A stretch of DNA of 64,000 bases from a virus (lineage: Duplodnaviria; Caudoviricetes), in IMG/VR virus record IMGVR_UViG_3300032138_000002, positions 95,484-159,483 of that record; one strand, written 5' to 3'. Under the pieces are notes generated by a model. It ran no database searches. It was given only the letters and a program-made list of their open reading frames with translations, and was not told the DNA's origin. Positions 22,767 through 41,096 of this stretch are shown piece after piece. The translations under genes were made by a program, and so were the position numbers. The stretch's first letter is position 1, and every line of letters begins with the position of its first letter.

Positions 22767-23206
22767 CTTATTAACTCTTCCTTATAGTAAGCGGCTCTGT
22801 CGCTGCATATGCCCGCACAGTGCCTTAATTCCTCAGTTATTTCAGGAGGGGGTTTTACAGCTATCGAATTTTTAACCAAGGTTTGACCTGGGTATGTCCA
22901 AATATAACCCCTGTTAGTTAAAGCAAAATTATCAGTCTGATGCCAAAAACAATGGACGTCCAACCTCAGCAATCTTTCAAGGGCGTTTAAATTTTTGGCG
23001 TGACACCAGAAGTTTTTATTAAAAAGGAAGTTGGTTGGGATATATTGATCAGAACCATCATGTCCCAAATAAAAGCTCCCCTCTTTCCACCACACATCTA
23101 TTTCTACTTCAAACCCCTTATAAACTGCGTCTAAAATATAGTTGGGAGTATTTTCAAAAGCAGGCTGTGGGCCTATGATGTTGCCTCTATGGGCTATTAT
23201 TTTCAT
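22763..23206 (-). CDS. Glycerophosphodiester phosphodiesterase-like (PLC-like) protein
   Basis: IIAHRGN...ENT...VEIDVW...LGHD...WCHAKN...GICSD. Start at 23206 (ATGA overlap). Confidence 0.75.
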   Translation of the reverse strand: MKIIAHRGNIIGPQPAFENTPNYILDAVYKGFEVEIDVWWKEGSFYLGHDGSDQYIPTNFLFNKNFWCHAKNLNALERLLRLDVHCFWHQTDNFALTNRGYIWTYPGQTLVKNSIAVKPPPEITEELRHCAGICSDRAAYYKEELIR

Positions 23207-23946
23207 CCAATATTCCTGAGAATAAAATTCTCCATCATTATAACACATTCTGGGAGGGGTTGTTTAGCTGTGTTTATGGTTAAATCTGGGGTTTGGGGTT
23301 CTTCAAAGGGGTCTGAAATGCCAGTAAAATTATAGATCTTATCGGGGTGACCATCAGGTAGGAGCGCCTTAGCATATAACCCCTTTATATCTCTTTTCTT
23401 TACCGTCTCTAAATCGCATTTTATGTATATTGTTTTAACGCTAGAATCTTTTTTCTGGTTTTCTATTCTTATCTCTTCATAGGGGTTGATAGCAGCGATG
23501 ATTGATATTATGCTGTTTCTGGCTAATATTTTGCTCACAAAACTTAAACGCCTAATATTGTTGTTTCTGTCTTCTTTGGAAAAACCCAAGTCTTTGCACA
23601 GGTTTTCGCGATACTCGTCGCCGTCAATTACCTCTACCAAATAACCTTTTTTTCTCAGTCTCTGCGCTGTGTGCTGCGCTAGTGTGCTCTTGCCGGCACC
23701 AGATAAGCCCGTCATATGAAGTGAAATGCCTTTGGTTCGACCCCAACGAATGACAGCCCAAAATCGTTCATGATAAATATAGGCAAACAAAGTGACAATT
23801 TGGTGGAGCACACTAATGCTGACAGACGTGGCTGCTGAACTGGTAATAAAATATGAACAACATAATAGGCTCAAAAAGCCTAACAGTCTCCACGACAAAG
23901 ATTTAACTATACTGCGTCGTCGGGTATCAATCATCCAGATATCCAT
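23203..23946 (-). CDS. cysC: Adenylyl-sulfate (APS) kinase with N-terminal DUF2061-like membrane domain
   Basis: TGLSGAGKST P-loop, IDGD, LGFSKEDR..NIRR, RDIKGLY, FTGISDPFEEP. N-terminal RRSIVKSLSWR...HERFW. Confidence 0.9.
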   Translation of the reverse strand: MDIWMIDTRRRSIVKSLSWRLLGFLSLLCCSYFITSSAATSVSISVLHQIVTLFAYIYHERFWAVIRWGRTKGISLHMTGLSGAGKSTLAQHTAQRLRKKGYLVEVIDGDEYRENLCKDLGFSKEDRNNNIRRLSFVSKILARNSIISIIAAINPYEEIRIENQKKDSSVKTIYIKCDLETVKKRDIKGLYAKALLPDGHPDKIYNFTGISDPFEEPQTPDLTINTAKQPLPECVIMMENFILRNIG

Positions 23947-24754
23947 AGTGACGGAGCCATGGGCCGCACTCTGTCTCTATAAAAGCTATTTGTTCGTCGG
24001 TCAAAGTTTCTTTGTATCCCCCCACTTTGCCGTTATTTGATGTAATGTGTTCTTTTAACATTAACGTGGCCGAATATCGGGGGTCACTCCAATCACCAGA
24101 AGTCAACAAATTGTCCGTATCATCTTTAATGCCTTCCGCTTTCATGATAATCGACTTAAGTACCTCTTCTTTCATGGTATCGATCTCGGGAAAAAAGTTT
24201 CTCATCAAAGTTTTGAGTGTTTCAAGGGGGTCAACCTTATAATCCTCATAACACCATTCATAGCGTTTAACATATTTGTTTATATCAGGAATTGCTTCGT
24301 TATCGACATATTGCTGGACCTTGGAAAAATCCTTTTGCTTTGATGCGGCATACCACATCAGGTGTTCTTTCACTATGTTTTCGAACTCCTCTTGTGATAA
24401 TTCTACGTTTCCATGGTGTTCCCTTCTTTTACGCAACGCCGAGGCCGCAGTATCGCGGATATCACGACGTACGGTAATTAAAAAATCACACACGATATCT
24501 CCCGTATGTTCCTTTGCTATGAGTATATCCACGGGAGCAGGGGGTTCTTTTGTGTGATATTCACAATAATCCTGACTGAGGGCTACGGCGACGTTAAGTT
24601 GGCAGGTTTCGCAGAAAATTCGCATAAGATTGAGAAGCAGAGTGCTTCCAGATTGCGGCATTCCCCCTATACACACAATCGGTGGCCGTTTTTTTTGCCA
24701 TGTCTTTTTCCGCATTCGTGTCCAGATGTTATCGTCTTTCCAGGACAAGTCCAT
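23927..24754 (-). CDS. PAPS-dependent sulfotransferase-like protein
   Basis: GGMPQSGSTLL (5'-PSB loop), RRDIRDTAAS (3'-PB), YED, GKVGGYK; adjacent to cysC. Confidence 0.75.
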   Translation of the reverse strand: MDLSWKDDNIWTRMRKKTWQKKRPPIVCIGGMPQSGSTLLLNLMRIFCETCQLNVAVALSQDYCEYHTKEPPAPVDILIAKEHTGDIVCDFLITVRRDIRDTAASALRKRREHHGNVELSQEEFENIVKEHLMWYAASKQKDFSKVQQYVDNEAIPDINKYVKRYEWCYEDYKVDPLETLKTLMRNFFPEIDTMKEEVLKSIIMKAEGIKDDTDNLLTSGDWSDPRYSATLMLKEHITSNNGKVGGYKETLTDEQIAFIETECGPWLRHYGYLDD

Positions 24755-25467
24755 TATTGGTTCTCCAAAAAATATTTGAGGTCTTCAGGAGTACCTAGGC
24801 CCCACATTTTGTTAACATAAAATGGAATTAAAGTTTTTCCGTCTTCTAGCATTTCGTTATAAACCGGGGCAATATAATATTCCCCATTTACTCTCACGTT
24901 TTTTTCTATCATTTGGTGAGCATATTTAACGAACTCTGAGCCTCGTCGATACCAATATATACCACATGTGGCGATATTGGAAATAGGCCTTTTCTCAGCC
25001 ACCTCTGTAACAAAACCGCGAGAATTTGTCTTTACAAAGGACCATTTTGGGTGTACGGCATTGAACGTGAAGACCATCGAATCTACATCAGTTAAGTTCT
25101 TCAAAGTTTTAAAATTCTCGGCCTCGTACTCAATAAATTGATCAGAATTGGCGATTAATAAGTCCTCGTCGTCGTTAATAAGATCTTGAGCTAATAGGGC
25201 AGTGCAAGCCGCTCCTTCAGTTAACTCTTTTACCTCCACATGAGAACAGCGGCCATTTGTTATACGTTCCAGAGTATCTAAGAGACCGGCATACTTTTTT
25301 ACGTGATCGTGCCTTACTAAAAATATATATTCACAATCAAAATCTAGATTTTCTACCACCGTTTGGATCATGGGTCTTCCACGAACATCAATCAATGGTT
25401 TGGGAAAAGTATATCCCTCTTTGGTGAATCTACTGCCTTCACCCGCCATGGGTATTAAAACTTTCAT
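24754..25467 (-). CDS. Sugar-phosphate nucleotidyltransferase (NTP_transferase family)
   Basis: LIPMAGEGSRF...PKPLI, NSDQ, VAEK, NGEYYIAPVYN, LGTPEDL. Confidence 0.85.
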   Translation of the reverse strand: MKVLIPMAGEGSRFTKEGYTFPKPLIDVRGRPMIQTVVENLDFDCEYIFLVRHDHVKKYAGLLDTLERITNGRCSHVEVKELTEGAACTALLAQDLINDDEDLLIANSDQFIEYEAENFKTLKNLTDVDSMVFTFNAVHPKWSFVKTNSRGFVTEVAEKRPISNIATCGIYWYRRGSEFVKYAHQMIEKNVRVNGEYYIAPVYNEMLEDGKTLIPFYVNKMWGLGTPEDLKYFLENQ

Positions 25468-26083
25468 CTATAAATCTTTTAACCCCCTTTTTAATTACTT
25501 CGGTGGCATTGGTGACTTTCATTACACTACACCCGGATGCACGTGCAGCTTTTTCCCCTTTGGGGGAATCTTCTATTATCATAGCATTTTTAGGGACACA
25601 ATTAAAGTGTTTTAATACCTGAATATAACCTTCGGGGTCTGGTTTTGCATTAATCACATCTTCATTAGTTAAAAAGTACTCAAGATGCTCTAAAATACCA
25701 GCTTCAGTCAATACAAGTGAGGCCGTTTCTCGAATACTATTAGTAAAACACGCAATTCGGGCGTTATTGGATTTAAGCCATTGTATTAATTCAACTTTTT
25801 CCGGTCTTTCTTCGGATTGTGCTCTGATTATCTCTAGAGTGCGCTCTTGCTTAAAATCAAATATGTCTTGAACATTATCTTTTTCAATTTTATTGGCCTC
25901 CACCAGCATTTTTAATTTTATCTTAGTGGGGAGGCCGTTGTATATTTTATAATGTTCCTCTAGGGGAATCTCATAGTTACAAACATGTTTTAATGCAGCA
26001 TTGAATGCTTCTAAATGCCATCCGCAAGCATCTACCAACACCCCGTCCATATCAAAAATAACTAGTTCTGGAAACCTAGACAT
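25439..26083 (-). CDS. HAD-family phosphatase (beta-PGM-like)
   Basis: FDMDGVLVD, TNS, KPDPEGY, IEDS. Likely start at 26083. Confidence 0.85.
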   Translation of the reverse strand: MSRFPELVIFDMDGVLVDACGWHLEAFNAALKHVCNYEIPLEEHYKIYNGLPTKIKLKMLVEANKIEKDNVQDIFDFKQERTLEIIRAQSEERPEKVELIQWLKSNNARIACFTNSIRETASLVLTEAGILEHLEYFLTNEDVINAKPDPEGYIQVLKHFNCVPKNAMIIEDSPKGEKAARASGCSVMKVTNATEVIKKGVKRFIDESFNTHGG

Positions 26084-26849
26084 TTGTACCTCTAGCCGCT
26101 GGGTCAATATTGTATTCATCCAGGAGACTTTTAAGTTTTTTAGGATAACACTGAAAATCCCATTTACCTTTTACGACCGCGGTGGCAAAATAAGGATAAA
26201 CATGACTATCCCAGTGAAAGTCTCCTCGCATTTGTTCGCCTTCCATAAAAGTCATCGCGCACTTAAATGCATGTTTTGCACAAACAATATTACTGTTGGC
26301 TTCGAATTTCCATATATTCTCACCGGGAGTTTCCTCATAGATACGCATTAAATTTTCTTTTTTACACAATGTGGGTTGAATTGCGAATTGTAAATCCGGA
26401 GGGCAATAAAAAACATTCTCGTGAAGCATGGTGGGAGTTAAGGTTTCATATGGTCTGTACGTTGCCCGTACAAATTTAATAAAATCAAGTTGTTGTTCTT
26501 TTATCAAGCTACAACATTTCTCTATTATTTGATTATTCGGCTCCCCATATAAAAACATATCCTCATGGTGAAATACAATTATGTCTTCTTCGACTTGCTG
26601 AATACCTTGCAAAACGCGTTGTTGATAGGGCAGTGCATCGTCATACCGCAACAAAACCCAGTCGGAATTTAAATCCGGCGTGCTTTGGTCAGCAATTAGA
26701 TATTTCTTTACTTCCGGCAAAAACTTGTCCATTTGAGCGAACATGGGTTTCCAGATATCTGAATAATCTGAATGGGAATAGAAAACGGCGGCGTACACTA
26801 GTATTCCTACAACAATGCCATGAAGTCTGCGTGGGCGGTGGCGCCACAC
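26076..26849 (-). CDS. Putative glycosyltransferase (GT-A-like)
   Basis: SHSDYSDIW, HHEDMFL, QPTL, WKFE, AVVKGKW; inside the glycan cluster. True start uncertain. Confidence 0.5.
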   Translation of the reverse strand: MWRHRPRRLHGIVVGILVYAAVFYSHSDYSDIWKPMFAQMDKFLPEVKKYLIADQSTPDLNSDWVLLRYDDALPYQQRVLQGIQQVEEDIIVFHHEDMFLYGEPNNQIIEKCCSLIKEQQLDFIKFVRATYRPYETLTPTMLHENVFYCPPDLQFAIQPTLCKKENLMRIYEETPGENIWKFEANSNIVCAKHAFKCAMTFMEGEQMRGDFHWDSHVYPYFATAVVKGKWDFQCYPKKLKSLLDEYNIDPAARGTNV

Positions 26850-27607
26850 TCATCCATTTGTTTAAAGAAATCAACGGATAAGCTTCGATTCACATCGTCG
26901 ATAAAAGGCGAGAACTTATCATGAGTTAATTCCTTTTTTTCGAACGTTAAAAGATGATCTATCTTTGTTTCTAGCACTTTGTCCCACACGCGTGTTCCGA
27001 TTGTTGGGATTGTTCCCAGTTCACACACATCCCGTAGACCTTTCACCGTACGCATTGAGCCGGCAATAATTTCTGCGCAGTCTGATTTACGCTTTTGAGC
27101 AAAAGCTACGTGTGCGGCAGCGTCCACTCCCTGCTCTTCCATCCGGCCGGGAATCAAACTAACATAACGGACATTATAAGTGAAACATGATAAGGCAGTT
27201 GAACAGTCGGCGACGCCGGTGACGTTTGTTTCCATAAAATTATTCAATTGGTCTACAACCTCAAGCACTCCGTGAAATGGGGGTATTTTTAGGCCTAGGC
27301 GTGTGGTGCCGTCTGTAAACTGACATATATACTCGGCCCATTTAACAATGTCATGAGGACACATCTCCGAATTTGGCGCTTGTACATATACGACGCCTTT
27401 GTTGTCGCCTCGTATTTTGGTTACAAGCGCACATAACTTCGGGAGATGTTCCGTCCATTGTTCTAGGCGATCCATATTTACCTTTTTAAATGCATTTGGA
27501 TTTGTGGTGATCCCGCGCACGTGAGTACTATCGACGGTATTTTTAAGGCGCCCCCAGACATTTTCGATATATTCTATATCGGCAGTATCAAAAAAGAAAT
27601 CAAACAT
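26807..27607 (-). CDS. Transaldolase/fructose-6-phosphate aldolase family protein (divergent)
   Basis: FDTAD, GITTNP, LKIP (Schiff-base Lys), NVT, YVS..GR, AGSMR. Confidence 0.8.
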   Translation of the reverse strand: MFDFFFDTADIEYIENVWGRLKNTVDSTHVRGITTNPNAFKKVNMDRLEQWTEHLPKLCALVTKIRGDNKGVVYVQAPNSEMCPHDIVKWAEYICQFTDGTTRLGLKIPPFHGVLEVVDQLNNFMETNVTGVADCSTALSCFTYNVRYVSLIPGRMEEQGVDAAAHVAFAQKRKSDCAEIIAGSMRTVKGLRDVCELGTIPTIGTRVWDKVLETKIDHLLTFEKKELTHDKFSPFIDDVNRSLSVDFFKQMDECGATAHADFMALL

Positions 27608-27965
27608 TTTTTTCCTCCTCGGCTTTTAATAATGTTTTTTTAACAGTGTCCCAATCAGTGAATTTTATTCCCTTATCATCTATAAAATAATCTACATGGG
27701 GTTTTCCAAACAATAACTCATCATAAGGGATGCAGTATTTGTCTAGCCAATCTAAAACAAGCTTCCCTTGATTTGCAATAATTCTTCCCACGTTGTTTTC
27801 ACAAGTTCTCATGTTTCGAGCAGTAAAAATGACAATATAATATCCACGTTGTTTTAAAAATTCTAATGTTTCTACAGCGTTAGGCAAAGGTTTTACATCA
27901 CGGTAACTCTGGTCTGCGGCTTTGGTCTCGCATATTGTCCCGTCTAAATCAACGCATATCTTCAT
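27600..27965 (-). CDS. Capsule-biosynthesis HAD phosphatase (EcbF/BcbF-like)
   Basis: CVDLDGTIC, FTARNM, WL...IPYDEL.FGKP..YFIDDK. Confidence 0.85.
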   Translation of the reverse strand: MKICVDLDGTICETKAADQSYRDVKPLPNAVETLEFLKQRGYYIVIFTARNMRTCENNVGRIIANQGKLVLDWLDKYCIPYDELLFGKPHVDYFIDDKGIKFTDWDTVKKTLLKAEEEKNV

Positions 27966-28953
27966 AATCTAACGCCTCGTTTAAAAGTTTGATACCAGTA
28001 GTATACATCACCGTTTGCCGGGGCAAGCTATCATAATGTCGCGAGCACATACCAATGTATATCAATCCTTGAATTAACTTAGCTCTATTATCTCTGAATC
28101 TGTCGAATTTATTAAACACTTTTTTAATTTTTTCTTTATTATCATTTGCAAAGGTAACCTGAAAGTGGTTTAAGTCTTTATTCTCTTCTAACTCAAATTC
28201 ATCAAAAATAATATATTCATATCCCCCTTCGAAAGAATGAACAAGTTTAGCTATATCATAGAGTGGATCACCAAACACACCGTCCTCACCAAAATGCCCG
28301 CGAGGGTCTACGAATTTTAACAAATGGGTCTGAGTTTTTGCATTTACCCCACAAAGAATATTCGAAAAACAAAAATCTCCATGAATAACCGAAAGTTGAC
28401 GCAAAGGCGTTAAATAATGTCGAATAAGTTCCTGTAGCTGATTCCATAAACAGTGGAAGTTCGCATAGGAGCGTCCGTCGATAATAAGTTTTTGATGGGT
28501 GGCTATGACTGCAAATTTAGGGTTTTCTAGTAATTCTTTATAATAACGTTCCGTTTTGCCAATGTACATTGCTTCTGCGTACGCTGTGAAATCGTCGTTT
28601 TTATGGGTTGTTACAAAAGAATCTAAAGCGTCGTTAATACCCGATGCAACATTTTCCCAAAAGGCTTGATCGAAATCCTCGTATACCATATAATCACCCA
28701 GATTATTATAAGCGTAGTACTCTAATTCCATCGAATGCTCCCCATCTTCATGTGAAGATTTGCGAAATCTAGGGAAAAAGATAGAGTGCGGTGTCGTCTC
28801 TATATCTTTATAATAATTTATTTCATCAAAGAGGCGTGTTTCGCGGCTTCGTTTCGTTATGGTTCCTAACGATGAGTCAATCGAAAACGAATTATAGGCT
28901 CTCGTTATATGCTGCTTCATAGACTTCCTCGATGGACAAGATCGATAAGCCAT
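27949..28953 (-). CDS. Sugar kinase, aminoglycoside-phosphotransferase/choline-kinase fold (BcbE/KfoE kinase-like)
   Basis: RAYNSF, DEINYY, IHGDFCFSNIL, FVDPRG, GDPLYDIAKL. Likely start about 28920. Confidence 0.75.
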   Translation of the reverse strand: MAYRSCPSRKSMKQHITRAYNSFSIDSSLGTITKRSRETRLFDEINYYKDIETTPHSIFFPRFRKSSHEDGEHSMELEYYAYNNLGDYMVYEDFDQAFWENVASGINDALDSFVTTHKNDDFTAYAEAMYIGKTERYYKELLENPKFAVIATHQKLIIDGRSYANFHCLWNQLQELIRHYLTPLRQLSVIHGDFCFSNILCGVNAKTQTHLLKFVDPRGHFGEDGVFGDPLYDIAKLVHSFEGGYEYIIFDEFELEENKDLNHFQVTFANDNKEKIKKVFNKFDRFRDNRAKLIQGLIYIGMCSRHYDSLPRQTVMYTTGIKLLNEALDYEDMR

Positions 28954-30292
28954 TATTCACCGCAAATTTGTTAAGATCGCCGCCTTTTGTCATCGTCCCA
29001 TCGTCATTCATAATTTCACAAATAATAGCAGCCGGTTTAAGACCCGCTAGTTTCATTAATTCTACAGAGCCTTCCGTGTGCCCTCTGCGCTCCTTCAGGA
29101 GGCCGTCACGTGCCCTCAGGGGGAACAGGTGGCCTGGGCGTGTAAGGTCGTCAGGCTTTGACGTGGGGTCCAGCAATACTTGAAGAGTAACCAGCCGATC
29201 GTACACTGACATGCCCGTAGTTGTGCCGTGCTTTGGGGCACCATCAACCGATACGGTAAACGGAGTTTCGTTAGCATCCGTATTATTCTCAACCATGGGT
29301 GGAATTTCCAAACGCTTAAGATCGGCGTCCGTCATGGGCACACACATCAACCCCTTCGCTTTATTCATGGTAAAAACAAGGTTTTCGACGGATGCGCGTT
29401 CGGCAGCGATCACAATATCCCCCTCATTTTCGCGATCATATTCATCCACCAAAATAATTGGTTTCCCTTGTCTAAGTTCTTCGAGGGCGTTTTGCATTTT
29501 TCTGCTTTTAATCATTTCATTTTCCTTTGTAGCTGATTTGGCAATAAAAATGTCTACTTTGCTAGACATTTTTTTAATTTCTAACCATGTTTCAAATTCG
29601 GCGAGGCTTTCTGGAGTGTCCATCGATCTCATTTCTAGAATATTGTAATCGAAGATATTCTTACCGGCTGCAATTGCTTCATTAAAAACTGGTGAAATAT
29701 AAAATTCGTTATTAACACGAATATTTTTGGTGATCATGGAATTGGCAAATTCTATAAAATCGGATCCGTGGCGCCAATAAAAGGCGCCCGCCAAGGCTGT
29801 TGTAGAAATAACTTCCTTTTCAGCTACTCGATTTACGCGGCCACCATCACCAACCTCGGCATAACTCCATGATTTATTTCCGCTCTTATCATTAAAAGTA
29901 AAAATCATTCCGTCGATGTCTGGATTGTTGATTGTTGTAGTAAATGTTTCCGTTTCCCAGAGGAAATAGTTATCACAATTGACAATCATTAGCTCTTCGT
30001 CGTTGTCGATATGGCGCGCCGCTAACAATGCTGTACAAGCTTGGCCGTCGGTTATACCATCTGCTACCACAAGTCGGCAATCGGGGACAATTTGTTTCAG
30101 TGTTTGATCGATATGATATTTATCGATATGTTCTTTCTGTACAATAAAAATATATTGCCCCTCTATGTTTAAACTCTCCACAACGCGTTGTATCATTGGT
30201 TCGCCGGCGATGTCGATTAGGGGCTTAGGTAAACTATACCCCACTTCTTTAAAACGCTTTCCGGCGCCTGCCATTGGTATTAATATATTCAC
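28892..30292 (-). CDS. ribB: Fusion: sugar-phosphate nucleotidyltransferase plus 3,4-dihydroxy-2-butanone-4-phosphate synthase (RibB)
   Basis: N-terminal LIPMAGAGKRF...PKPLI, NCDN, VAEK, NNEFYISPVFN. C-terminal DEYDRENEGD, GLMC, FTVSVD, TTGMS..DR, RPGHLFPL, RRGHTEG, CEIMNDDGTM. Likely GTG start at 30292. Confidence 0.9.
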   Translation of the reverse strand: MNILIPMAGAGKRFKEVGYSLPKPLIDIAGEPMIQRVVESLNIEGQYIFIVQKEHIDKYHIDQTLKQIVPDCRLVVADGITDGQACTALLAARHIDNDEELMIVNCDNYFLWETETFTTTINNPDIDGMIFTFNDKSGNKSWSYAEVGDGGRVNRVAEKEVISTTALAGAFYWRHGSDFIEFANSMITKNIRVNNEFYISPVFNEAIAAGKNIFDYNILEMRSMDTPESLAEFETWLEIKKMSSKVDIFIAKSATKENEMIKSRKMQNALEELRQGKPIILVDEYDRENEGDIVIAAERASVENLVFTMNKAKGLMCVPMTDADLKRLEIPPMVENNTDANETPFTVSVDGAPKHGTTTGMSVYDRLVTLQVLLDPTSKPDDLTRPGHLFPLRARDGLLKERRGHTEGSVELMKLAGLKPAAIICEIMNDDGTMTKGGDLNKFAVNNGLSILSIEEVYEAAYNESL

Positions 30293-30294
30293 TT

Positions 30295-31176
30295 TTATTC
30301 CCACTCCGTTTGAAGGGCTATAGCACTGTCCCATAACTCATTTTTTATTAGAAACCATTTCATCAGCAAAATACCATTGACAGCCAAATAATAAGGATAC
30401 TTATGTAAATTTTTACTGCGTTCCTCCGGAGGTTTTGTTTTTTCGTTGCTCCGAAAATCATTCATTTTAGATTCGGGCCAGCCTGATGTCACTGTCTCCC
30501 TATATTCACTTCTCAATTGCAAATAGTCTAACAACACTTTTTCATAAAGGCTGCAAAAAATATCCATGTTTTTGGAATTAGAATAGAACCACATATCCGC
30601 GGGCCCTTCATTGAAAAGATCCCAATCAGCTTGATATAAATAATTCATATCCAACGTCGGGTCAAAGTTGATACATTGACACGGAAAAGGATTTTGTTTT
30701 CCTGGGCCGCTCGTGGCGCGATTGATGCGACCTAAGTCGAAGCGTGCCTTAATAACACAGTCATATTTAAACCCTTGTTCTTTTTCATATTCTCGCTTAA
30801 GAACAAGCGACTGAGAAAGAGAATAATATTGACTTAACAACCTCTCTGGGCCCACGTACCCAGTACCAGAAGTCGACGTCATTGTCCAATTTCCCAAAAA
30901 ATTATAGGGATCGATATCTTCTCGACTTACCTCGTGTTCTTGAGCAATGGGTACAAAGTCAATTTGGGGCTCTATAATGTGTTTTCTAGGCTTATATAAA
31001 TCAACTAGTTTCTCCTCTAGATGGGGCTCCCAATTGTGAAAGAACACATCAATTTCGCAATCCTCCGAGCCATGGCTAAGAATATGTTTCTTAATATATT
31101 CAAACCCATCCATGCCCCGGGAGGAACTATCTTTCAGGGAATCGAAATAACCCGATAAACAGAGAGCGATTTTCAT
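30295..31176 (-). CDS. Putative glycosyltransferase-like protein
   Basis: MKIALCLSG...DVFFHNW...YDCVIKARFDL...DMWFY; directly upstream of the nucleotidyltransferase-RibB gene. Confidence 0.55.
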   Translation of the reverse strand: MKIALCLSGYFDSLKDSSSRGMDGFEYIKKHILSHGSEDCEIDVFFHNWEPHLEEKLVDLYKPRKHIIEPQIDFVPIAQEHEVSREDIDPYNFLGNWTMTSTSGTGYVGPERLLSQYYSLSQSLVLKREYEKEQGFKYDCVIKARFDLGRINRATSGPGKQNPFPCQCINFDPTLDMNYLYQADWDLFNEGPADMWFYSNSKNMDIFCSLYEKVLLDYLQLRSEYRETVTSGWPESKMNDFRSNEKTKPPEERSKNLHKYPYYLAVNGILLMKWFLIKNELWDSAIALQTEWE

Positions 31177-31242: not shown

Positions 31243-32253
31243 TTAAGTTTCATCTCGATCTATAGTGGTATCGGCGGGGGGTTTGACGGCCCGCACATAA
31301 TAGGCAGGTCGGGTAGTAAATAAATCCGTTCCCATAGTTACGGTAATATCTTTAAAGCCGGCAATATAAAAATCTCTCAACAAATAGCGTGGATCTTCCA
31401 CTCGGCAATTCATAGGAGCCTGTCCGTATTCTTTTTGCTGGCGCAAGCCCCATGTGCCCGTATAGCCGTTGCTTATTTCCATATCTATAAAATGGTGGGA
31501 CACGATCCCCCCTGGCTTTAACACACGAAAGCTTTCTTCGATCAAAGACATCCGATTATAATAATCGGGAATGTGAATAAAGACTGCGGAAGACATGACA
31601 AAATCGTATTCTTCGGACAGTGCCGGTTTTAAGTCCCAGCCACTGGTTTCAAAGCTTTGTGATTTGCCGGCGCCATGGATATCTTCGGCATATTTTTTAC
31701 TATATATAATATTTTGTTCAGAGATGTCGCAGCCATCCACTCTTTCAAACTCAGCTATATCGAGCAAATTTTTAAGATTACGTCCGCAGCCACAGCCAAC
31801 ATCTAAAGCTTTTTTTCCCTTCCAACTGGGCGCATCAGAATATACATCCCCCAATAACACCGTCCAATATTCTCTATCCTCATCCCGTTCCTTGTGATTT
31901 CCGACTGTCATTCCAGTGTGCTCGGCCTCAAAAAAACCTTTTTGGTAGGCGGTGTAGGTTTCTATATTGGGGGCGCCGGTTGTTTCTATCCAATCGAGGG
32001 CGAAGTATTCACCCACCGTTACCCCCTCGTCGACCAAATCTTGGCGGAAGACATCTAAACTGCTTTGATAAGAAGCACCAAACACCTCGCTGAATATCCA
32101 TATAACGCCGGGGCGGAGGGATAATCTCTGGGAGCGCATTTCCATGCGGATGTCTTTGTAATTTGTATATATTGTAGTATCCGGCTTCCCAAAGTTTTTT
32201 TCATCATTGCAATAGATTTCATAACCCTTCATTACGTCTGGAAGATGGTTCAT
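31243..32253 (-). CDS. Class I SAM-dependent methyltransferase
   Basis: ALDVGCGCGRN, GCDIS, YDFVMS, RVLKPGG. Confidence 0.85.
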   Translation of the reverse strand: MNHLPDVMKGYEIYCNDEKNFGKPDTTIYTNYKDIRMEMRSQRLSLRPGVIWIFSEVFGASYQSSLDVFRQDLVDEGVTVGEYFALDWIETTGAPNIETYTAYQKGFFEAEHTGMTVGNHKERDEDREYWTVLLGDVYSDAPSWKGKKALDVGCGCGRNLKNLLDIAEFERVDGCDISEQNIIYSKKYAEDIHGAGKSQSFETSGWDLKPALSEEYDFVMSSAVFIHIPDYYNRMSLIEESFRVLKPGGIVSHHFIDMEISNGYTGTWGLRQQKEYGQAPMNCRVEDPRYLLRDFYIAGFKDITVTMGTDLFTTRPAYYVRAVKPPADTTIDRDET

Positions 32254-32873
32254 TATCTCACCTTTTTCCTGGTTAAAAACAAGTCGAACTCTCTTAAATC
32301 TCGATAGGGTGGATCCTCGGGAAGATCGTCCACAGTTTCAGGATAATTTTGCATTAACATAAGGCCTCGGGCTGCTTGTTCCGGAGTCATATACATATTC
32401 CAGCCTTCTTCTTCAATCATATCCTCATGATAGGGGACTTCTGATCTTCCTTCATATCTGGCTTTGCGAAAATATTCTACGGCTTTTATGTCGTCAGTCA
32501 AGATCATTCCTCCTTTGCCAATTTTAAGATGTTTTTTAATATGAAAAGATAAACACATGTGAGTACCCGGGATATACATGCCTGAAGTAAATCTCTTTGC
32601 CGCATCATAAATTGGGAAAGGTTTAAGTTGATAAATCCCCTTCCATTTTATATCTTCTAGCTGAAGGTTGCCTCCGGCCTGTATAATAGATTGCGGTGGC
32701 GAAAGATAAGTGCGACTAGGAATAGTTACGGTCTGGTTTTTTACACCCGCGTATTTACAAGCTAGAAAAAGTGCGTTGGTACAATTATTGACCGATACGG
32801 CATAGGGCGCGCCTGCATAGTGTGCCACCTCTTCCTCAAACATTTTAACTATTTTATAAGGATTGTGCAGCAT
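32253..32873 (-). CDS. DegT/DnrJ/EryC1/StrS aminotransferase (short form, 206 aa)
   Basis: FEEEVA..YAVSVNNCTNAL, YDAA, SFHIKKHL, GKGGMILTDD. Confidence 0.8.
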   Translation of the reverse strand: MLHNPYKIVKMFEEEVAHYAGAPYAVSVNNCTNALFLACKYAGVKNQTVTIPSRTYLSPPQSIIQAGGNLQLEDIKWKGIYQLKPFPIYDAAKRFTSGMYIPGTHMCLSFHIKKHLKIGKGGMILTDDIKAVEYFRKARYEGRSEVPYHEDMIEEEGWNMYMTPEQAARGLMLMQNYPETVDDLPEDPPYRDLREFDLFLTRKKVR

Positions 32874-33712
32874 TATGTCAAATATTTATAGCGCGCCTGA
32901 AAGACAAAATTAGTATATTTTATCAGATCTTCTGTTTCATATTTTTTGGCAAATTTGCAAAAGGTTTGGATACTATCAATAGCGCTATATTCGCCGTTTA
33001 CTTCAGCAAAGACTGGAAGAATAAAAAAATACGTCGAGAGTTTATCCAACAGCTTTAATTTTTCTTCATCATTGTTTGTTTGAGGATCCGGGTGTCCATG
33101 CAACTCCATTGCCATGGTATTTATTTTATTATAATATTTGAAAGTTTCAAATATTTCATATTCGCTCCCCTCTGCATCTATCTTAAGATAATCGATATGG
33201 GGAAGAGGTATTCTTTCTATAATGTCATTTAGTGATATTGTATCACATGTTTGACCCACAGGGGCATATTGCGGATCCGACAAGAAACCCGCACTACAGA
33301 CGACATCACCCGACATTCCACTTTCATGGGCGTAAAGCTTAACAATTCGGTCACTCTCAGAACTCACAGCTTGATGAAAAATATATACATTGTCGTGACC
33401 CATCTGTTCCATAAGATGCGTTGCAACCTGGTAATTCTCAAGACACGGCTCAAAGCCGTATACATGTTCATAACGGGTGGCAGCGCGTGCCAAGAAAGTT
33501 CCTACATTAGAACCAATATCAACGCATATGCCCGTTAATTTTCCGTCGGATGGGGGGAGCGGATAAGACGATCTTGTTTCCTTCTCCATTTCTTGGATCC
33601 AGGCATTGATTTTCTCTTTCGTTGATAAATTTTTAAAAATAAATTCTTGTGATTTGACAGATGTCATGATTATTCCTTCTCCAAAATATAATACTTTTCC
33701 GTGAAGCCGCAC
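32873..33712 (-). CDS. FkbM-family methyltransferase
   Basis: VDIGSNVG, GFEP, YLKIDAEGSEYEI, ELH. Likely start about 33667. Confidence 0.85.
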   Translation of the reverse strand: MRLHGKVLYFGEGIIMTSVKSQEFIFKNLSTKEKINAWIQEMEKETRSSYPLPPSDGKLTGICVDIGSNVGTFLARAATRYEHVYGFEPCLENYQVATHLMEQMGHDNVYIFHQAVSSESDRIVKLYAHESGMSGDVVCSAGFLSDPQYAPVGQTCDTISLNDIIERIPLPHIDYLKIDAEGSEYEIFETFKYYNKINTMAMELHGHPDPQTNNDEEKLKLLDKLSTYFFILPVFAEVNGEYSAIDSIQTFCKFAKKYETEDLIKYTNFVFQARYKYLT

Positions 33713-34062
33713 TTTTTAAACATCCAATAGCTTTCCGCATTTGCAATTTTTACTTTGGCTTGTGCGTTGGGGTGGCGTTTCATTAATTCGTTAATCATGA
33801 ATTTTCCCACTCCCTTTCCTTGGTGTCCCGGTTCCACCGCAATCCGAATATCTCCGTCTATTTGACCCACGAAGCCTATAGGGCTTTTATTTTCCAAACA
33901 AATATAATATCCATGACCATACTTAAACATAAATTTAAAATGCTCAAAGCGTCCAATGTGGCGTTGATCTATAAAGCCGTTCTTCACCTCCTTTTCGTTA
34001 CGGAGGGCTCGAATATACTCCCAATATTTAAGTTCATTGTTTACCAACTTCATCAGTTGCAA
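33670..34062 (-). CDS. GNAT-family acetyltransferase (PseH-like)
   Basis: IRALRN, HQGKGVGK acetyl-CoA motif, N..S...F.KCGF. Confidence 0.75.
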   Translation of the reverse strand: MQLMKLVNNELKYWEYIRALRNEKEVKNGFIDQRHIGRFEHFKFMFKYGHGYYICLENKSPIGFVGQIDGDIRIAVEPGHQGKGVGKFMINELMKRHPNAQAKVKIANAESYWMFKKCGFTEKYYILEKE

Positions 34063-34841
34063 TCCTTAAATAAATCGGGGTGGCCAGTGCGATTCCAATA
34101 AGCTCGGAGGTAGTCTCGTTCTATACCCAAATTCAGATGCCAATGAAGAGTGGTGCCAATATCGATATATGTGTTATTACTATTAAATTCAAATAAACGA
34201 TGAATAAGAATTTCGCTGAGACTGCTGGCTGAAAATAAAAAGATGTGATTTTCAATATTGTTTTCTTCGGCCCACCCTTTCATCTCGTCAATTAAATGGT
34301 GATCATTAACAATACAGTTTCGACCTACTCGAAAATCTTTCACTACCTCAAAAGGAAGTTTTTCAAAAGACGCATCTTTGCTACAAACAACCACTATTTT
34401 TTTGTTCGTGAACTCAGGGACCATTTGGTTCAAGAAAAGCGAATAATTGGAATTTACCAACAAATTCGGACTTGTCCAATGTTCTTCATCATCAGGTCGA
34501 AGTTCTCGCAACATAGGAATGTCTTGCTGAATTAAGCACGTGCAATTTCCGCAACCTGCGCCAACAAAATAGTTTTTCTTAGAAAATTGAAAGGAATCTA
34601 CCAGTGCTTCCCGGACAAAGCCGTGTTTTTGAGGTAAAAACTCTTTATGATCGTCTTCGGAGTAACCAAATGTGTGTAGCTTGGTGCCCACAAGTACGTG
34701 ATCACTAGCCAGTACTAACTTTTCATTTCGCATGATGCAAGTCTCACCATCAGAAAACCTAGTAAAAGCAAAATGTTCTCCTCTTTTTAATTTATTGAGG
34801 AGAAGAAAAAAATCTTCTTTAAAACCTTTACTCATTCTCAA
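34053..34841 (-). CDS. GT-D fold (DUF1792-like) glycosyltransferase
   Basis: FAFTRFSDGE, YIDIGT. Confidence 0.6.
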   Translation of the reverse strand: MRMSKGFKEDFFLLLNKLKRGEHFAFTRFSDGETCIMRNEKLVLASDHVLVGTKLHTFGYSEDDHKEFLPQKHGFVREALVDSFQFSKKNYFVGAGCGNCTCLIQQDIPMLRELRPDDEEHWTSPNLLVNSNYSLFLNQMVPEFTNKKIVVVCSKDASFEKLPFEVVKDFRVGRNCIVNDHHLIDEMKGWAEENNIENHIFLFSASSLSEILIHRLFEFNSNNTYIDIGTTLHWHLNLGIERDYLRAYWNRTGHPDLFKDCN

Positions 34842-35847
34842 ACATGTTTAGTATTCTAGTAATTGCCGTGGCGCTATGTCCGGTGCCGTATGGACACGAT
34901 ATCCCTTCATTAACTCTGAAGTCATTTGCGGCCTCATTTACTATAGCATATAAATCTACAGGATTATAGCATAAAACAGAAAATTCACCTAGGCCTGCTG
35001 TTCTTTCTGTTTTTTTGCGGCAGACGACGCTTCGTTTGCGGAGAAACGAGGATTCTTCTTGAAGGCCTCCTGAATCCGTGATGAGAAATCGGCACCGGGC
35101 CACTTCTTCAATAAACTGATTATAGGGGAGCGGTGGAAGCACCGTAACATGTTTAAGATTAGCAACGTGCTTTTGCACATTAGGGTTAGGATGTGCATAA
35201 TAGACAAATTCTAATTCGTCAAAAGCTTTTGCCACGCGGTCGAATTGCTCGAACCACTCTGGGATAATCTCATGGTTTTCTCGTCGATGCATAGTGATAA
35301 GAACTTTGTTACTATACTCGATCTCCAAATATTTCTTACGTAGATTATCGAGAACAGTGTTACCTACAACATAAACCGATCCTTGGGTGTTTTCTTTTTT
35401 TAAGTTGGCCGCATCTTGGTTGGTGGGGCACAAGTGGATTGAAGCCAACCGGGAGATGGCCTGGCGATTAAATTCTTCAGGATAAGGATTGGAATTATCG
35501 TGTGTCCGGAGGCCCGCTTCTAAGTGAATAACTGGAATTTGTCTATGAAATGCCGCTAAAGAGGCTGCAAACGCCGAAGTAGTGTCTCCTTGGACCAGCA
35601 CGTAATCGTAATTTTCGTTCCAGAGATCCTTTGTGTTCATGATAGACTGTACAATGCTATCTAACCGGTTATCTCCATCTATAATAGTGGCAACATAGTC
35701 GACTTTACTAGTAGCTCCGTCCGGAAGTAAATCCATATGTTGTCCCGTAAAAAATACTTTAAAATCGATGCCGGTATCGTCAAATTCTTCTATAAGCGGG
35801 AGTATTTTAATATATTCCGGTCGTGTTCCATAACATAATAAGATCAT
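34828..35847 (-). CDS. wecB: UDP-N-acetylglucosamine 2-epimerase (non-hydrolysing)
   Basis: GTRPEYIK, TGQH, VQGDT, HLEAGLR, PEEFNR, HRREN, TDSGGLQEE. Confidence 0.92.
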   Translation of the reverse strand: MILLCYGTRPEYIKILPLIEEFDDTGIDFKVFFTGQHMDLLPDGATSKVDYVATIIDGDNRLDSIVQSIMNTKDLWNENYDYVLVQGDTTSAFAASLAAFHRQIPVIHLEAGLRTHDNSNPYPEEFNRQAISRLASIHLCPTNQDAANLKKENTQGSVYVVGNTVLDNLRKKYLEIEYSNKVLITMHRRENHEIIPEWFEQFDRVAKAFDELEFVYYAHPNPNVQKHVANLKHVTVLPPLPYNQFIEEVARCRFLITDSGGLQEESSFLRKRSVVCRKKTERTAGLGEFSVLCYNPVDLYAIVNEAANDFRVNEGISCPYGTGHSATAITRILNMFENE

Positions 35848-37454
35848 AATTTTATACCTCTAACTGTTTTCCAACCGTTCTGAAGTGCATTTTGCACTAC
35901 GCCGTCTCTTTCCGAGAAGAATTGTTGGTGTGATGTTTCGTTATTGTTCGAAGTGGCCTTACTGTCGATGCCTAGCTCGTTTCCAAGCACCGATCCGTGA
36001 AGAGAATTATCTTCCGGGGGATGGGGCGGGCAATAAGTTTTAATGCCACCTTTTTTTTGAGCTAAAAAAGAGAACTGAATATCTTCCCCATTATCCCATG
36101 TAGTGGGCATCTCACTCCATAGGTGGCTTAACCATTCTCTTTTAAAAAACCACGCATGGCCAACTAAATCAACCTCAGTGGTTTCCTCGTTTTGAATTGG
36201 CCAGCCGCAGCGGTCGTGTTGGACATAATAAGGGCTTTTAAGTATTACGCCGGCTGAGCCCAGAATTCCTTCGTGAGTTTCCATAGTTTCCAAACAGTTT
36301 TTAAACCACTGTGTGCCCGGGACAGTATCATCATCAAAAATAGCGATATATTCAGTATCGGCCAGAAGTGCGGCGGCAAATCGGCCATAAAATTTCCAAT
36401 TAAAGTCGTTATCAATGATTCTATCAACGTTTAGCGTGTCCCTGTCATAATGTTGGTTATCCTCATGGGCGTTAATCCACACCCAAGTTTGTTTAGGTTG
36501 AATTGTTTGTTTTTTGATGGCGCCCACCTGTAATGGAATGTTTTCAGGGCGTCTATACATATTAAGTATCACGGTGATGTCCGCTTGGGAAGCTTTTGTT
36601 TTTACGACCTCATCGATGGTATTTAGAAAAAGTTTCTCCGCTCTTTCTTGATTTTCTTGCACTGCGGCGAGAAGAGGAGCACCCTTCAGTTTGAACCATG
36701 GCTCATGGGCCGCGCTAATATTCTTATTGCATGTTAACTCACAATCTAAGATGCGGGCCTCCACAGCTAAGCGACTAAAAGTTTCAAATACTTGTGGAAA
36801 GAAAACTAAACCGGAATACCGGGCCAACTTTTTGATAAAGGAGGAATAATCCGGATCTGTAACTAAATCAAAAGCTAGATTATGTTTATGACAATGAGCT
36901 TCCGCTTGGAATTGGCCTTTGACCAAATTATGAGTTTTTAAAACGGCTTTTTTCCCGTTTTTTTCACTCTTGATATTATTTCTCAAGATATCAATGTGCT
37001 CTTCGGACCAGAACGTGCTCCCGAAGGTTATGATATTGCCGAGTTTGAGATTATTCTTTACAATTTCCCCATGCTTGGTGCTCTGGCAGAAAACCTTTTG
37101 AGCTTTTTTATAAAAATCGCGGTTAACGATCTCTTCTTTGGGAGCAAGAAAGTTTGTATATGGAGAAGGGTCTCGTGAGCGTAAATATTTGTGATCATGT
37201 TCAACAATAAAATATGTCGTGGACCCCAAAAGGGATCGCACGTGGGGATCTAAGCCTACAAAATTAGAAACGATAAAGATATACTCATCGGCCATACTTT
37301 TAATAAACAGGTCACTGGTGCCTCTAGATGGAGAAAAGACCACCGTGTGGCCGGCATCTTGTAGCAGGGACATCAGGTGAGCATCCACAATCTCGGCGCC
37401 TCCCTGCACCTCGGCGACAGAAAAATCCGATATCCAAACTATCTTATGCATCAA
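35844..37454 (-). CDS. Two-domain glycosyltransferase (GT-B-like N-terminus plus GT-A-like C-terminus)
   Basis: GGAE, ETFSRLAVEA (GT4-like); AIFDDD, GEDIQFS (GT-A-like). Confidence 0.7.
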   Translation of the reverse strand: MMHKIVWISDFSVAEVQGGAEIVDAHLMSLLQDAGHTVVFSPSRGTSDLFIKSMADEYIFIVSNFVGLDPHVRSLLGSTTYFIVEHDHKYLRSRDPSPYTNFLAPKEEIVNRDFYKKAQKVFCQSTKHGEIVKNNLKLGNIITFGSTFWSEEHIDILRNNIKSEKNGKKAVLKTHNLVKGQFQAEAHCHKHNLAFDLVTDPDYSSFIKKLARYSGLVFFPQVFETFSRLAVEARILDCELTCNKNISAAHEPWFKLKGAPLLAAVQENQERAEKLFLNTIDEVVKTKASQADITVILNMYRRPENIPLQVGAIKKQTIQPKQTWVWINAHEDNQHYDRDTLNVDRIIDNDFNWKFYGRFAAALLADTEYIAIFDDDTVPGTQWFKNCLETMETHEGILGSAGVILKSPYYVQHDRCGWPIQNEETTEVDLVGHAWFFKREWLSHLWSEMPTTWDNGEDIQFSFLAQKKGGIKTYCPPHPPEDNSLHGSVLGNELGIDSKATSNNNETSHQQFFSERDGVVQNALQNGWKTVRGIKL

Positions 37455-38704
37455 TCAAATACCAACACTTCCTCATCTGTTGATTCTTCCGGTGAAGTGT
37501 CTAATTCTATTCCAAGTGCTTCAACAAATGTTTTGTATATCTTCTTTTCTTCCCAATTCCGAAGAATATACCCTTTCAGGCGTTTTGACATTTTTATTTT
37601 ATCTTTATAATTTTTGAAAATATCTCGCAATCCTCGCTTATAGGATTTCTTATCGGGGTAGCACCACTGGGAAGCGGCTTCTAAAACGCCGGGCCAAACA
37701 GCCTCGGGGTGGATGGGGGCCACCTCGTGTTCTACTACCGTATAGTGTTCGATGACTTTGCCTTTAACGGGCGCCGATAAAAAGTCTATATGACCTGACC
37801 AGCCGGGTGCAATAATGGGCAGCCCGTTGTACGCAGCCTCAAAAAGGGGCAAGCCAAAACCTTCTCCGTGGGTCAAAGACACCATTGCCTTTATTTGGTC
37901 ATGAATATAAAGACCTGTAAGTTCTTCATCAGTCATATCGCCATGGAGGAGATAAACACTACATGTCCGTTCACCTAGAGATGTTAAGAGATTATCGAGT
38001 TTCCGTGTGGTAAAATCATGATCCATTGTAGAATTTTTAGCCGTATTGGTTTTTATTACCAGTCCAACTTCATCATCTCTGAATTCTTCTACAAACCACG
38101 AAATTGTATTCTCCAAATTCTTTCGGGGGCACCATTGGGCGACTATCAAAAAATTAAAGTCGTGCTTCAATTCTAAATCGACCTTCTTTGGTTTGATTTT
38201 TTTTACAGGGTAATTTACTGCCTCGATATGAGGTTGTGCCATCAAAAGTCCTTTATCCTGGCCAGTCTGCGTATCAGTAATATTATATGAAGAATTCAGT
38301 ATACTTTTTTTCGTGTGTTCCGAGGTGGTAATGATCCGATTCATTTGATTAATCTTTTGTAACCATTGGGCCGACACAATATTAGTTTCGGCGCCGGCTG
38401 TGTATCCCACATTATAGGGGGCGCCCCCCACTTCGAATTCGCCCGGAATGGTTACTTGTAAGGTCATATCGAAAGGTGCGCCTTGACCTTGCGTGTGATT
38501 AATGGTTTTTTGTACCAAAAAATCAATCCAGTTCTTTTCGGCTGTATCTTCGGACACATTGCCGGTGCTACCCCACGGAATATCGAGGGCATAAATATCA
38601 AAGATGTCTTCACGGGACCGGAGAGCCCTTAAAGCAAAACGGGCTTGTTCCCCGTAGCCCGATCGACTACGAAATGGGCCCTTTACAATTATTTTCTTTC
38701 TCAT
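37451..38704 (-). CDS. Glycosyltransferase family 4
   Basis: SRSGYGEQAR, RKN, GEGFGLPLFEAA, WSGHIDF. Confidence 0.85.
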   Translation of the reverse strand: MRKKIIVKGPFRSRSGYGEQARFALRALRSREDIFDIYALDIPWGSTGNVSEDTAEKNWIDFLVQKTINHTQGQGAPFDMTLQVTIPGEFEVGGAPYNVGYTAGAETNIVSAQWLQKINQMNRIITTSEHTKKSILNSSYNITDTQTGQDKGLLMAQPHIEAVNYPVKKIKPKKVDLELKHDFNFLIVAQWCPRKNLENTISWFVEEFRDDEVGLVIKTNTAKNSTMDHDFTTRKLDNLLTSLGERTCSVYLLHGDMTDEELTGLYIHDQIKAMVSLTHGEGFGLPLFEAAYNGLPIIAPGWSGHIDFLSAPVKGKVIEHYTVVEHEVAPIHPEAVWPGVLEAASQWCYPDKKSYKRGLRDIFKNYKDKIKMSKRLKGYILRNWEEKKIYKTFVEALGIELDTSPEESTDEEVLVFD

Positions 38705-40751: not shown

Positions 40752-41096
40752 TTACTTTTTTTGTTTTCTAGAGCGGGACGCTTTTTTAGGCGTCTCCCCT
40801 ATCTTACCAGACTTTTGTGTGTTTGTCAAGGTTTTTTTCTCGAATATCCAGGTACCCGTGAGGGTTTCTGTAGATGTGTTTGAGACGTATCCGGGGCCCT
40901 CAACGCACGTGCCAAATTCAATATCCCGGGATGCGAGGATATCTCTTATTTGTGTAGCTTTAATGAGCACTGCATTGGGGTTTCGTTGTGGTGGAAAGTC
41001 GGGTCCGCGGGGATAACTTGGGGCCCCGTTTAGTTCCATGGTAACAGTGACCTCAATAGTCTTTTCTTGATTATTTTCTTTGATATCAATCTTCAT
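40752..41096 (-). CDS. Hypothetical protein with basic C-terminus
   Basis: 114-aa ORF coupled to the upstream gene. Confidence 0.6.
   Translation of the reverse strand: MKIDIKENNQEKTIEVTVTMELNGAPSYPRGPDFPPQRNPNAVLIKATQIRDILASRDIEFGTCVEGPGYVSNTSTETLTGTWIFEKKTLTNTQKSGKIGETPKKASRSRKQKK
40801..40829 (-). promoter_or_regulatory. Near-consensus sigma70 promoter embedded in a coding sequence
   Basis: Minus strand TTGACA (40829-40824), 17-nt spacer ending in TGg, TAAGAT (40806-40801); 55 nt upstream of the nuclease start. Confidence 0.7.

Follow-up and report, generated by a model that had tools for sequence, protein, structure and literature searches.

RibB, the 3,4-dihydroxy-2-butanone 4-phosphate (DHBP) synthase, is regarded as a dedicated riboflavin enzyme, and in cells it occurs either free or fused to RibA. 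Two known routes, the GDP/ADP-heptose pathway (GmhA, HddA/HldE, GmhB, and HddC) and the MupP/AmgK/MurU route to UDP-MurNAc, turn a sugar omega-phosphate into a nucleoside diphosphate (NDP)-sugar with a kinase, a HAD phosphatase, and a nucleotidyltransferase (NT). CDP-ribitol synthesis (Bcs1/Acs1 and TarI-TarJ) pairs an N-terminal NT, either in one fused protein or as a coupled partner, with a ribulose 5-phosphate (Ru5P)-consuming enzyme in a surface-glycan locus. Here, we describe a gene of a tailed phage (IMG/VR virus record IMGVR_UViG_3300032138_000002; Caudoviricetes) that lies on the minus strand of a 64,000-nucleotide window (positions 95,484 to 159,483 of the record) and joins an N-terminal sugar-phosphate NT to a C-terminal RibB, in a cassette with an APH-like (protein-kinase-fold) small-molecule kinase, a small BcbF/EcbF-type HAD phosphatase, and a divergent transaldolase/FSA-like (TAL-like) enzyme. 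From its domains and gene neighborhood, the fusion gene is likely to belong to a five-enzyme sugar-nucleotide pathway. We favor, with moderate confidence, the overall reading that this pathway is essentially virus-borne and makes a nucleotide-activated unusual sugar.

In its kinase, HAD phosphatase, and NT, the cassette follows the logic of the heptose and MupP/AmgK/MurU routes. Its kinase is APH-like, as is the fold of AmgK, whereas the heptose-route kinase is GHMP or ribokinase-like; its front end consists of RibB and the TAL-like enzyme, in contrast to the SIS isomerase of the heptose route. There is a precedent in HldE for the fusion of non-consecutive enzymes from a single pathway, as proposed here for NT-RibB. 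In Bcs1/Acs1 and TarI-TarJ, an IspD-family NT has an SDR reductase as its partner, whereas here the partner is RibB, the match of the NT domain to IspD (PF01128) is below the cut-off (19.5 bits vs. 27), and the further partners, namely the kinase, phosphatase, and aldolase-like enzyme, are obligatory. The TAL-like enzyme has in common with the FSA/TalC short transaldolases (3r8r, 3s0c; cyanophage talC) the Schiff-base Lys, the Asp, the TTNP motif, and the phosphate-binding Arg/Ser, but neither the TAL Glu nor the FSA Tyr is present, and it bears a C-terminal extension of ~45 aa and forms a discrete family that occurs only beside RibB. The BcbE/BcbF/BcbG module of Pasteurella multocida type B/E capsules and a cellular trio of kinase, phosphatase, and NT are like the cassette in having homologous and similarly adjacent small HAD, kinase, and NT families.

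The NT-RibB fusion is a genuine, intact frame under purifying selection. Along the open frame, which spans 28892..30334 on the minus strand, Pfam identifies an NTP_transferase domain at residues 22–199 (E = 3e-8; 33.9 bits vs. a PF00483 cut-off of 21.2) and a DHBP_synthase domain at residues 282–473 (E = 2e-72; 243 bits vs. a PF00926 cut-off of 26.4). The ATG at 30334 is an alternative start that would give 480 aa; GTG at 30292 appears the likelier one, because it lies 2 bases past the upstream TAA and is preceded by a GGAG-like motif, and because the resulting 466 aa are the typical length of homologues. The initial annotation, made from the letters alone, had described a single frame joining NTP_transferase to RibB with a list of conserved motifs, which Pfam, TIGR00506, the translation, and the alignment with Vibrio cholerae RibB all bear out. 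The missed stop that it had considered between the domains is not there: contigs of three further studies span the junction (29515–29600) without an indel, and the substitutions in these bridging contigs are all synonymous (25 of 25). A search for the same architecture, also suggested there, returned ~60 protein clusters with 41–94% identity, as well as the isolated Synechococcus phage S-SKS1, in which the fused gene (40% identity) is annotated as DHBP synthase only. The fusion matches PHROG phrog_3980, for which the annotation is "unknown function." The stretch with the fusion gene is present in sequencing runs of 19 studies, from marine, seawater, and hydrothermal-vent samples. The best 80 cellular matches to the fusion each cover only one half, namely RibB in 79 and the NT in one. 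It is moderately probable that the gene product is a real bifunctional enzyme and, jointly with this, a member of the essentially virus-borne pathway.

In an AlphaFold2 model (26 family members; pTM 0.55), two domains are predicted with confidence, and the linker between them (residues 242–261) is disordered and probably flexible; the inter-domain geometry is not confident, and no confident inter-domain contacts were present in the model. The initial annotation had proposed that DHBP is "channelled" into glycan synthesis: this stands in the sense of metabolic diversion but not of physical channeling, which is not inferable from the model because it has no confident inter-domain contact. In the NT domain, the G-x-G-x-R...K-P-L signature (G9, G11, R13, K23, P24, and L25) is invariant across 26 fusions. 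A structure search places its fold closest to 4evw, an uncharacterized V. cholerae NDP-sugar pyrophosphorylase, and then to RmlA-type enzymes; HddC is its second-best PDB sequence match. The NT shares its family with that of the cellular trio, and from this homology its substrates would be a glycosyl-1(2)-phosphate and a nucleoside triphosphate. Judging from the NT tree, the NT-RibB fusion may have formed twice, out of different NT paralogues.

The RibB domain has the fold of the riboflavin enzymes (V. cholerae 4p8e/7uez and Escherichia coli 1g57), with Foldseek TM scores of 0.85–0.91 (target-normalized) and a root-mean-square deviation of ~1.8 Å. It passes the equivalog cut-off (TIGR00506, 218 bits vs. 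177), and V. cholerae RibB aligns over its full length (E = 1e-59). The motifs RENEGD, GLMC, FTVSVD, TTGMSVYDR, RPGHLFPL, RGHTE, and CEI are present in the translation. The catalytic and metal-binding columns, which we take to be Glu38, Glu40, Cys67, His136, Arg150, His153, and Glu174 in E. coli RibB numbering, are kept in both the cassette and the cellular RibB sets (RENEGD, GLMC, RPGH, RRGHTE, and CE). The identity of 45–57% to authentic RibBs argues for the normal reaction, by which Ru5P would be converted to DHBP and formate. Unlike riboflavin RibBs, the domain is fused to an NT, has no rib-gene context, bears seven substitutions near the active site, and belongs to a virus-associated clade that is always in the cassette. 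In a tree with 79 cellular RibBs from many phyla, the 32 cassette RibBs form one clade (SH-aLRT 99) with a stem branch of ~0.38 substitutions per site. The unfused RibBs are basal in this clade; therefore, the fusion appears to be derived inside a RibB lineage that was already cassette-linked. Seven otherwise near-invariant columns have clade-specific residues, several of them adjoining catalytic ones; the changes include I to M beside the catalytic Cys, A to P beside a conserved Thr, and V/I to L beside a His, and a Gly of all 79 cellular RibBs is Leu in 31 of the 32 cassette RibBs. These substitutions would leave some room for a shift in RibB specificity.

The initial annotation had noted the absence of ribA, ribD, ribH, and ribE from the window, and this extends to the record of 159,483 bp (completeness ~90% according to CheckV), of which the window is the last 64 kb: none of the families PF00925, PF00885, PF00677, and PF01872 (ribA, ribH, ribE, and ribD) was found in the entire viral record, whereas control genomes were positive. 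A full rib pathway elsewhere in the genome, which would have spoken for flavin synthesis, is thus missing from the virus record, but that test needs reframing, as the phage's host surely has a riboflavin pathway. Neither the gene content nor the tree speaks for a riboflavin-pathway role: there is no other rib family in the virus, and its RibB belongs to a clade separate from the 79 cellular RibBs.

The cassette is conserved as a unit. Window proteins were mapped onto 17 viral loci from ~9 distinct lineages (37–75% identity), and in all 17 the RibB, APH-like kinase, small HAD, and TAL-like genes are close together, with at least one NT near. The gene order is [NT-RibB][kinase][HAD][TAL-like] in the window lineage and S-SKS1, and [RibB][kinase][NT][HAD][TAL-like] in more basal lineages, in which RibB is free. 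With the TAL-like profile alone, a search of ~185,000 species genomes returned two contigs, both of which have RibB, kinase, NT, HAD, and TAL-like genes in order. Contexts picked solely by divergent members of the kinase family contain a DHBP synthase gene in six of six loci, adjacent in five. In addition to NT-RibB, there are fusions of RibB, an NT-like domain, and the kinase (a single 817-aa open reading frame), of NT and HAD, and of HAD and TAL-like; together, the four fusions connect all five parts. For the "X" segment between RibB and kinase in two loci (L099 and L008), homology to the N-domain of the Aeromonas kinase or to the window's 257-aa protein is weak or absent. No viral RibB of the cassette clade was found away from the cassette. 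The proposal of the initial annotation that this RibB serves glycan or nucleotide-sugar synthesis rather than flavin synthesis is strongly supported by the cassette linkage, the fusions, the RibB clade, and the absence of rib genes. These data strongly suggest that the predicted RibB product, DHBP, goes to an unusual activated sugar and not to vitamin B2.

Three of the cassette families also occur together in cells. Cellular genomes searched with the BcbF-type HAD family gave 79 loci, with the kinase family in 66 and an NT that is 26–42% identical to the fused NT in 71–73, usually adjacent; RibB or the TAL-like enzyme is present in only one of the 79, which is the L099 contig. HADs that pass the BcbF cut-off in Aeromonas, Vibrio, and Photobacterium (207–218 bits) adjoin the same kinase and NT partners, and the Aeromonas trio is located in a lipopolysaccharide locus between the WaaL and WavE genes. 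The module of APH-like kinase, BcbF-type HAD, and NT (loci L108-L185; for example, L169:5971-9605) is widespread in bacterial and archaeal glycan loci, and its carriers include Paenibacillus, Aeromonas, Vibrio, Bradyrhizobium, haloarchaea, and metagenome-assembled genomes of Asgard archaea and the candidate phyla radiation. Since neither RibB nor the TAL-like enzyme accompanies the cellular trios, their substrate is presumably an ordinary metabolite, for example fructose 6-phosphate. BcbE, BcbF, and BcbG are predicted to add the fructose side chain of the P. multocida type B capsule, and this side chain is lost in bcbE and bcbG mutants (PMC13552107, 2026). The trio probably bears on bacterial activation of fructose-type ketoses for capsules and lipopolysaccharide. 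A relation of the V. cholerae wav core cluster to fructose is also conceivable. We propose that the viral cassette combines this widespread sugar-activation trio with two virus-specific front-end enzymes. No NCBIfam models were found for the trio kinase or NT, or for BcbE or BcbG.

In the kinase, the motifs HGDxCxSNI and DPRG are invariant, and its homologues in cells adjoin BcbF-type HADs. Its profile gives only a weak APH match, and single-sequence PDB searches with the kinase and with the TAL-like protein returned nothing informative. When genomes were scanned by exact words with the window's kinase, no cellular relative turned up; relatives surfaced only through the HAD-anchored loci.

The TAL-like family is small and has sharp bounds: it takes in 255 of 1.84 billion representatives, 113 at E ≤ 1e-30, and a profile search found it nearly missing from the ~185,000 cellular species genomes. 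The Schiff-base residue K107 is invariant, as are R155, S184, and R186, which include the phosphate-site Arg/Ser, and the motifs TTNP and DTAD are present. In the profile alignment (3r8r and 4xz9), an invariant Gln76 occupies the TAL Glu position, and an invariant Ile152, at a position that adjoins the acceptor carbonyl, replaces the FSA Tyr/TAL Phe. No second TAL/FSA gene was found in the virus. In a published table (PMC4053976; Hurwitz et al., 2013), the S-SKS1 orthologue appears as a pentose-phosphate "tal" auxiliary gene. We considered and rejected a role as a plain pentose-phosphate auxiliary gene: the enzyme has neither of the catalytic acid/base residues and is found nowhere but beside RibB. 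The TAL-like gene of S-SKS1 and of the window is probably not a pentose-phosphate transaldolase. In S-SKS1 (L002), the TAL-like gene (14736-15545) is annotated "transaldolase," and the small HAD beside it is annotated "phosphoheptose isomerase," a label that looks wrong.

The gene linkage is observed, and every chemical step of the following route is inferred. The RibB domain would convert Ru5P to DHBP and formate, and the TAL-like enzyme would build DHBP into a larger ketose phosphate. Because DHBP (CH3-CO-CHOH-CH2OP) corresponds to glyceraldehyde 3-phosphate (OHC-CHOH-CH2OP) with a methyl ketone in place of the aldehyde, the most economical chemistry would be transfer of the dihydroxyacetone unit of fructose 6-phosphate or sedoheptulose 7-phosphate onto the DHBP carbonyl; the product would be a 4-C-methyl-branched hexulose 6-phosphate, an analogue of fructose 6-phosphate. 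The kinase and phosphatase would then shift the phosphate to the anomeric position, as in the heptose or MupP/AmgK/MurU route; the fused NT domain would form the NDP-sugar; and neighboring transferases would link this unit to a glycan. The two fused domains thereby probably catalyze the first and last steps of the route to the NDP-sugar. Transaldolase-type enzymes produce 2-ketose omega-phosphates, and the branched-ketose route is suggested by this product class, by the tie of the trio to fructose, by the retained acceptor-phosphate site, and by the replacement of the aromatic residue by Ile. In one locus (L102:4384-6377), genes for a class I fructose-1,6-bisphosphate (FBP) aldolase and a GlpX-type FBPase lie directly upstream of RibB, with a Wzx-like flippase near; the aldolase and FBPase would fit the demand of the proposed route for fructose 6-phosphate or sedoheptulose 7-phosphate.

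This specific chemistry is tentative, and we hold it to be less probable than the pathway itself, because ketone-accepting aldolases are rare and the TAL-like enzyme lacks both acid/base residues. A complete account, in which a non-flavin RibB supplies DHBP as a C4 methyl-ketone block, a ketone-accepting transaldolase extends it, and the trio (probably the module that cells use to activate fructofuranose) yields a branched ketose in nucleotide-activated form for glycans of the virion or the host surface, is doubtful in its entirety. Several observations weigh against the proposed pathway or against this chemistry. The activities of the cassette enzymes are all predicted. The window HAD, although homologous, is outside the curated BcbF family (TIGR01689, 86 bits vs. 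a cut-off of 162). We know of no ketone-accepting member of the transaldolase family, and since the TAL-like enzyme has neither of the known general acid/base residues, it may have an activity other than that of an aldolase. Ketones rarely serve as the electrophile of aldolases (PMC6202814). The link to fructose consists of the genetics of BcbE and BcbG, which are putative homologues of the kinase and NT, and no paper on bacterial NDP-fructose donors or nucleotide-activated ketofuranoses was found in the searchable literature. Finally, conserved gene order in phages can stem partly from shared ancestry and not from function, a reading that is countered here by the fusions and rearrangements.

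Among other explanations, the initial annotation had itself placed direct activation of DHBP, as an NDP-tetrulose or NDP-tetritol, alongside its use as a building block for an unusual sugar. Here, the NT would make an NDP-C4 unit from DHBP or from a reduced 1-deoxy-tetritol phosphate for phosphodiester-type incorporation, by analogy with CDP-glycerol, CDP-ribitol (Bcs1/TarIJ), or CDP-6-fructose. The architecture does parallel the Bcs1-type fusions of an NT to a Ru5P enzyme, RibB is joined to NT-type domains in two topologies, several loci have more than one NT, and the NT domain has weak IspD and NTP_transf_3 matches. Nevertheless, this scheme leaves the ever-linked kinase, phosphatase, and TAL-like enzyme without a role, and no reductase is conserved in the minimal cassette; in both sequence and fold, the NT is closer to sugar-1-phosphate NTs (4evw, HddC, and RmlA) than to IspD or TarI, and it belongs with the trio NTs. 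The unfused arrangement is also ancestral, and the linker of the fusion flexible. We regard direct activation as unlikely, and use as a building block as the better fit.

To much the same degree, it is unlikely that RibB has been neofunctionalized, with the same machinery acting on another ketose phosphate (e.g., the product of the TAL-like enzyme) in an analogous dehydration, rearrangement, and deformylation that would give a 1-deoxy or chain-shortened sugar. The separate cassette clade and its seven clade-specific columns, several beside catalytic residues, would be in keeping with such a change, but they are set against the closeness to bona fide RibBs in identity, equivalog score, and fold, the retention of all catalytic and metal-binding positions, and the moderate stem branch. 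A very improbable explanation is that the gene is a riboflavin auxiliary metabolic gene that boosts host flavin synthesis on infection, its fusion and neighborhood being incidental. Single rate-limiting genes of host metabolism are common in phages, the RibB domain appears fully functional, and databases label the fused protein 3,4-dihydroxy-2-butanone 4-phosphate synthase; however, the virus has no other rib genes, its RibB clade is cassette-specific and was not found in viruses off the cassette, the linkage is invariant over 37–75% identity and through rearrangements, and fusions to the NT and the kinase recur.

The enzyme families of the cassette are known; their combination, and the use of DHBP that it implies, are new. 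No description of the cassette or of a non-flavin role for RibB was found in the searchable literature, nor anything relevant that links DHBP synthase to cyanophages, nucleotidyltransferases, transaldolases, or auxiliary metabolic genes, and the S-SKS1 papers do not discuss its RibB. If the proposed pathway is correct, a conserved and selected non-flavin use of RibB would give the enzyme a new metabolic role and glycans a new source of carbon skeletons. Use of a ketone acceptor by a member of the transaldolase family would, if true, lead to branched sugars and be of interest for biocatalysis. The cassette also raises the question of the function of the trio, including in the capsules of animal pathogens, and the "ribB" and "tal" genes of marine viromes may be wrongly tallied as auxiliary metabolic genes. 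Synechococcus phage S-SKS1 on strain WH7803 is a cultured system with the same fusion and cassette, in which direct testing is possible. Coordinates of the cassette features are given in Table 1.

Table 1. Predicted features of the NT-RibB cassette and its immediate neighbors (window positions).
Feature	Position	Strand	Basis and remarks
Conserved virus-specific protein	30295..31176	minus	293 aa; weak DUF7796 lead; adjoins cassette in most loci
NT-RibB fusion gene	28892..30292	minus	466 aa from GTG 30292; open reading frame scan, Pfam, NCBIfam
N-terminal sugar-phosphate NT domain	29570..30292	minus	~residues 1–241; Pfam, structure match
Inter-domain linker	29510..29569	minus	residues 242–261; pLDDT <50
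C-terminal RibB (DHBP synthase) domain	28895..29509	minus	Pfam, NCBIfam, structure match; catalytic motifs intact
APH-like (protein-kinase-fold) small-molecule kinase	27949..28920	minus	Pfam, profile; overlaps end of fusion gene
Small BcbF/EcbF-type HAD phosphatase	27600..27965	minus	121 aa; TIGR01689 E = 1.7e-24, below cut-off
Divergent transaldolase/FSA-like (TAL-like) enzyme	26807..27607	minus	Pfam TAL_FSA, profile alignment
Conserved virus-specific protein	26076..26849	minus	directly downstream of TAL-like gene; weak GT2-like lead

A protein-atlas look-up of the two conserved neighbors of the cassette returned virus-specific "hypothetical" clusters only, with weak DUF7796, sulfotransferase-like, and GT2 leads; the 293-aa protein is possibly a transferase. 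Further along the minus strand (24754-26119), the gene for a second NT, which has 237 aa and 45% identity to the fused one, overlaps a β-phosphoglucomutase-like HAD_2 gene. These two are fused (~455 aa) in very many marine bacteria, in T4-like cyanophages (S-CAM9, S-PRM1, and others), and in locus L103, and they probably represent a separate NDP-sugar route. At 23203-24754 (minus), two overlapping genes encode an adenosine 5′-phosphosulfate (APS) kinase, with a DUF2061 membrane segment at its N terminus, and a sulfotransferase-like protein, and this pair suggests sulfation dependent on 3′-phosphoadenosine 5′-phosphosulfate in the same glycan locus.

On the other side of the cassette, the minus-strand genes at 31243-39972 include those for methyltransferases, a split DegT-type aminotransferase fragment (206 aa), a GNAT acetyltransferase, a UDP-GlcNAc 2-epimerase, and one GT2 and two GT4-type glycosyltransferases, with both GT4 genes conserved beside the cassette in most viral loci. 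Among the cassette loci, one (L101:11593-12822) contains a gene for a RuBisCO large-subunit-like protein of 409 aa. The virus is a tailed phage and has a T4-type baseplate wedge gene. In the window, a fusion of a PIN domain and a PhoH-like ATPase (437 aa) is encoded at 42102-43415 (minus). A 226-aa protein at 41086-41766 (minus) has a sub-threshold Pfam match of the ATLF metalloprotease type (E = 3e-5; 24 bits vs. 27) and is probably just a small zinc-metalloprotease-like fold.

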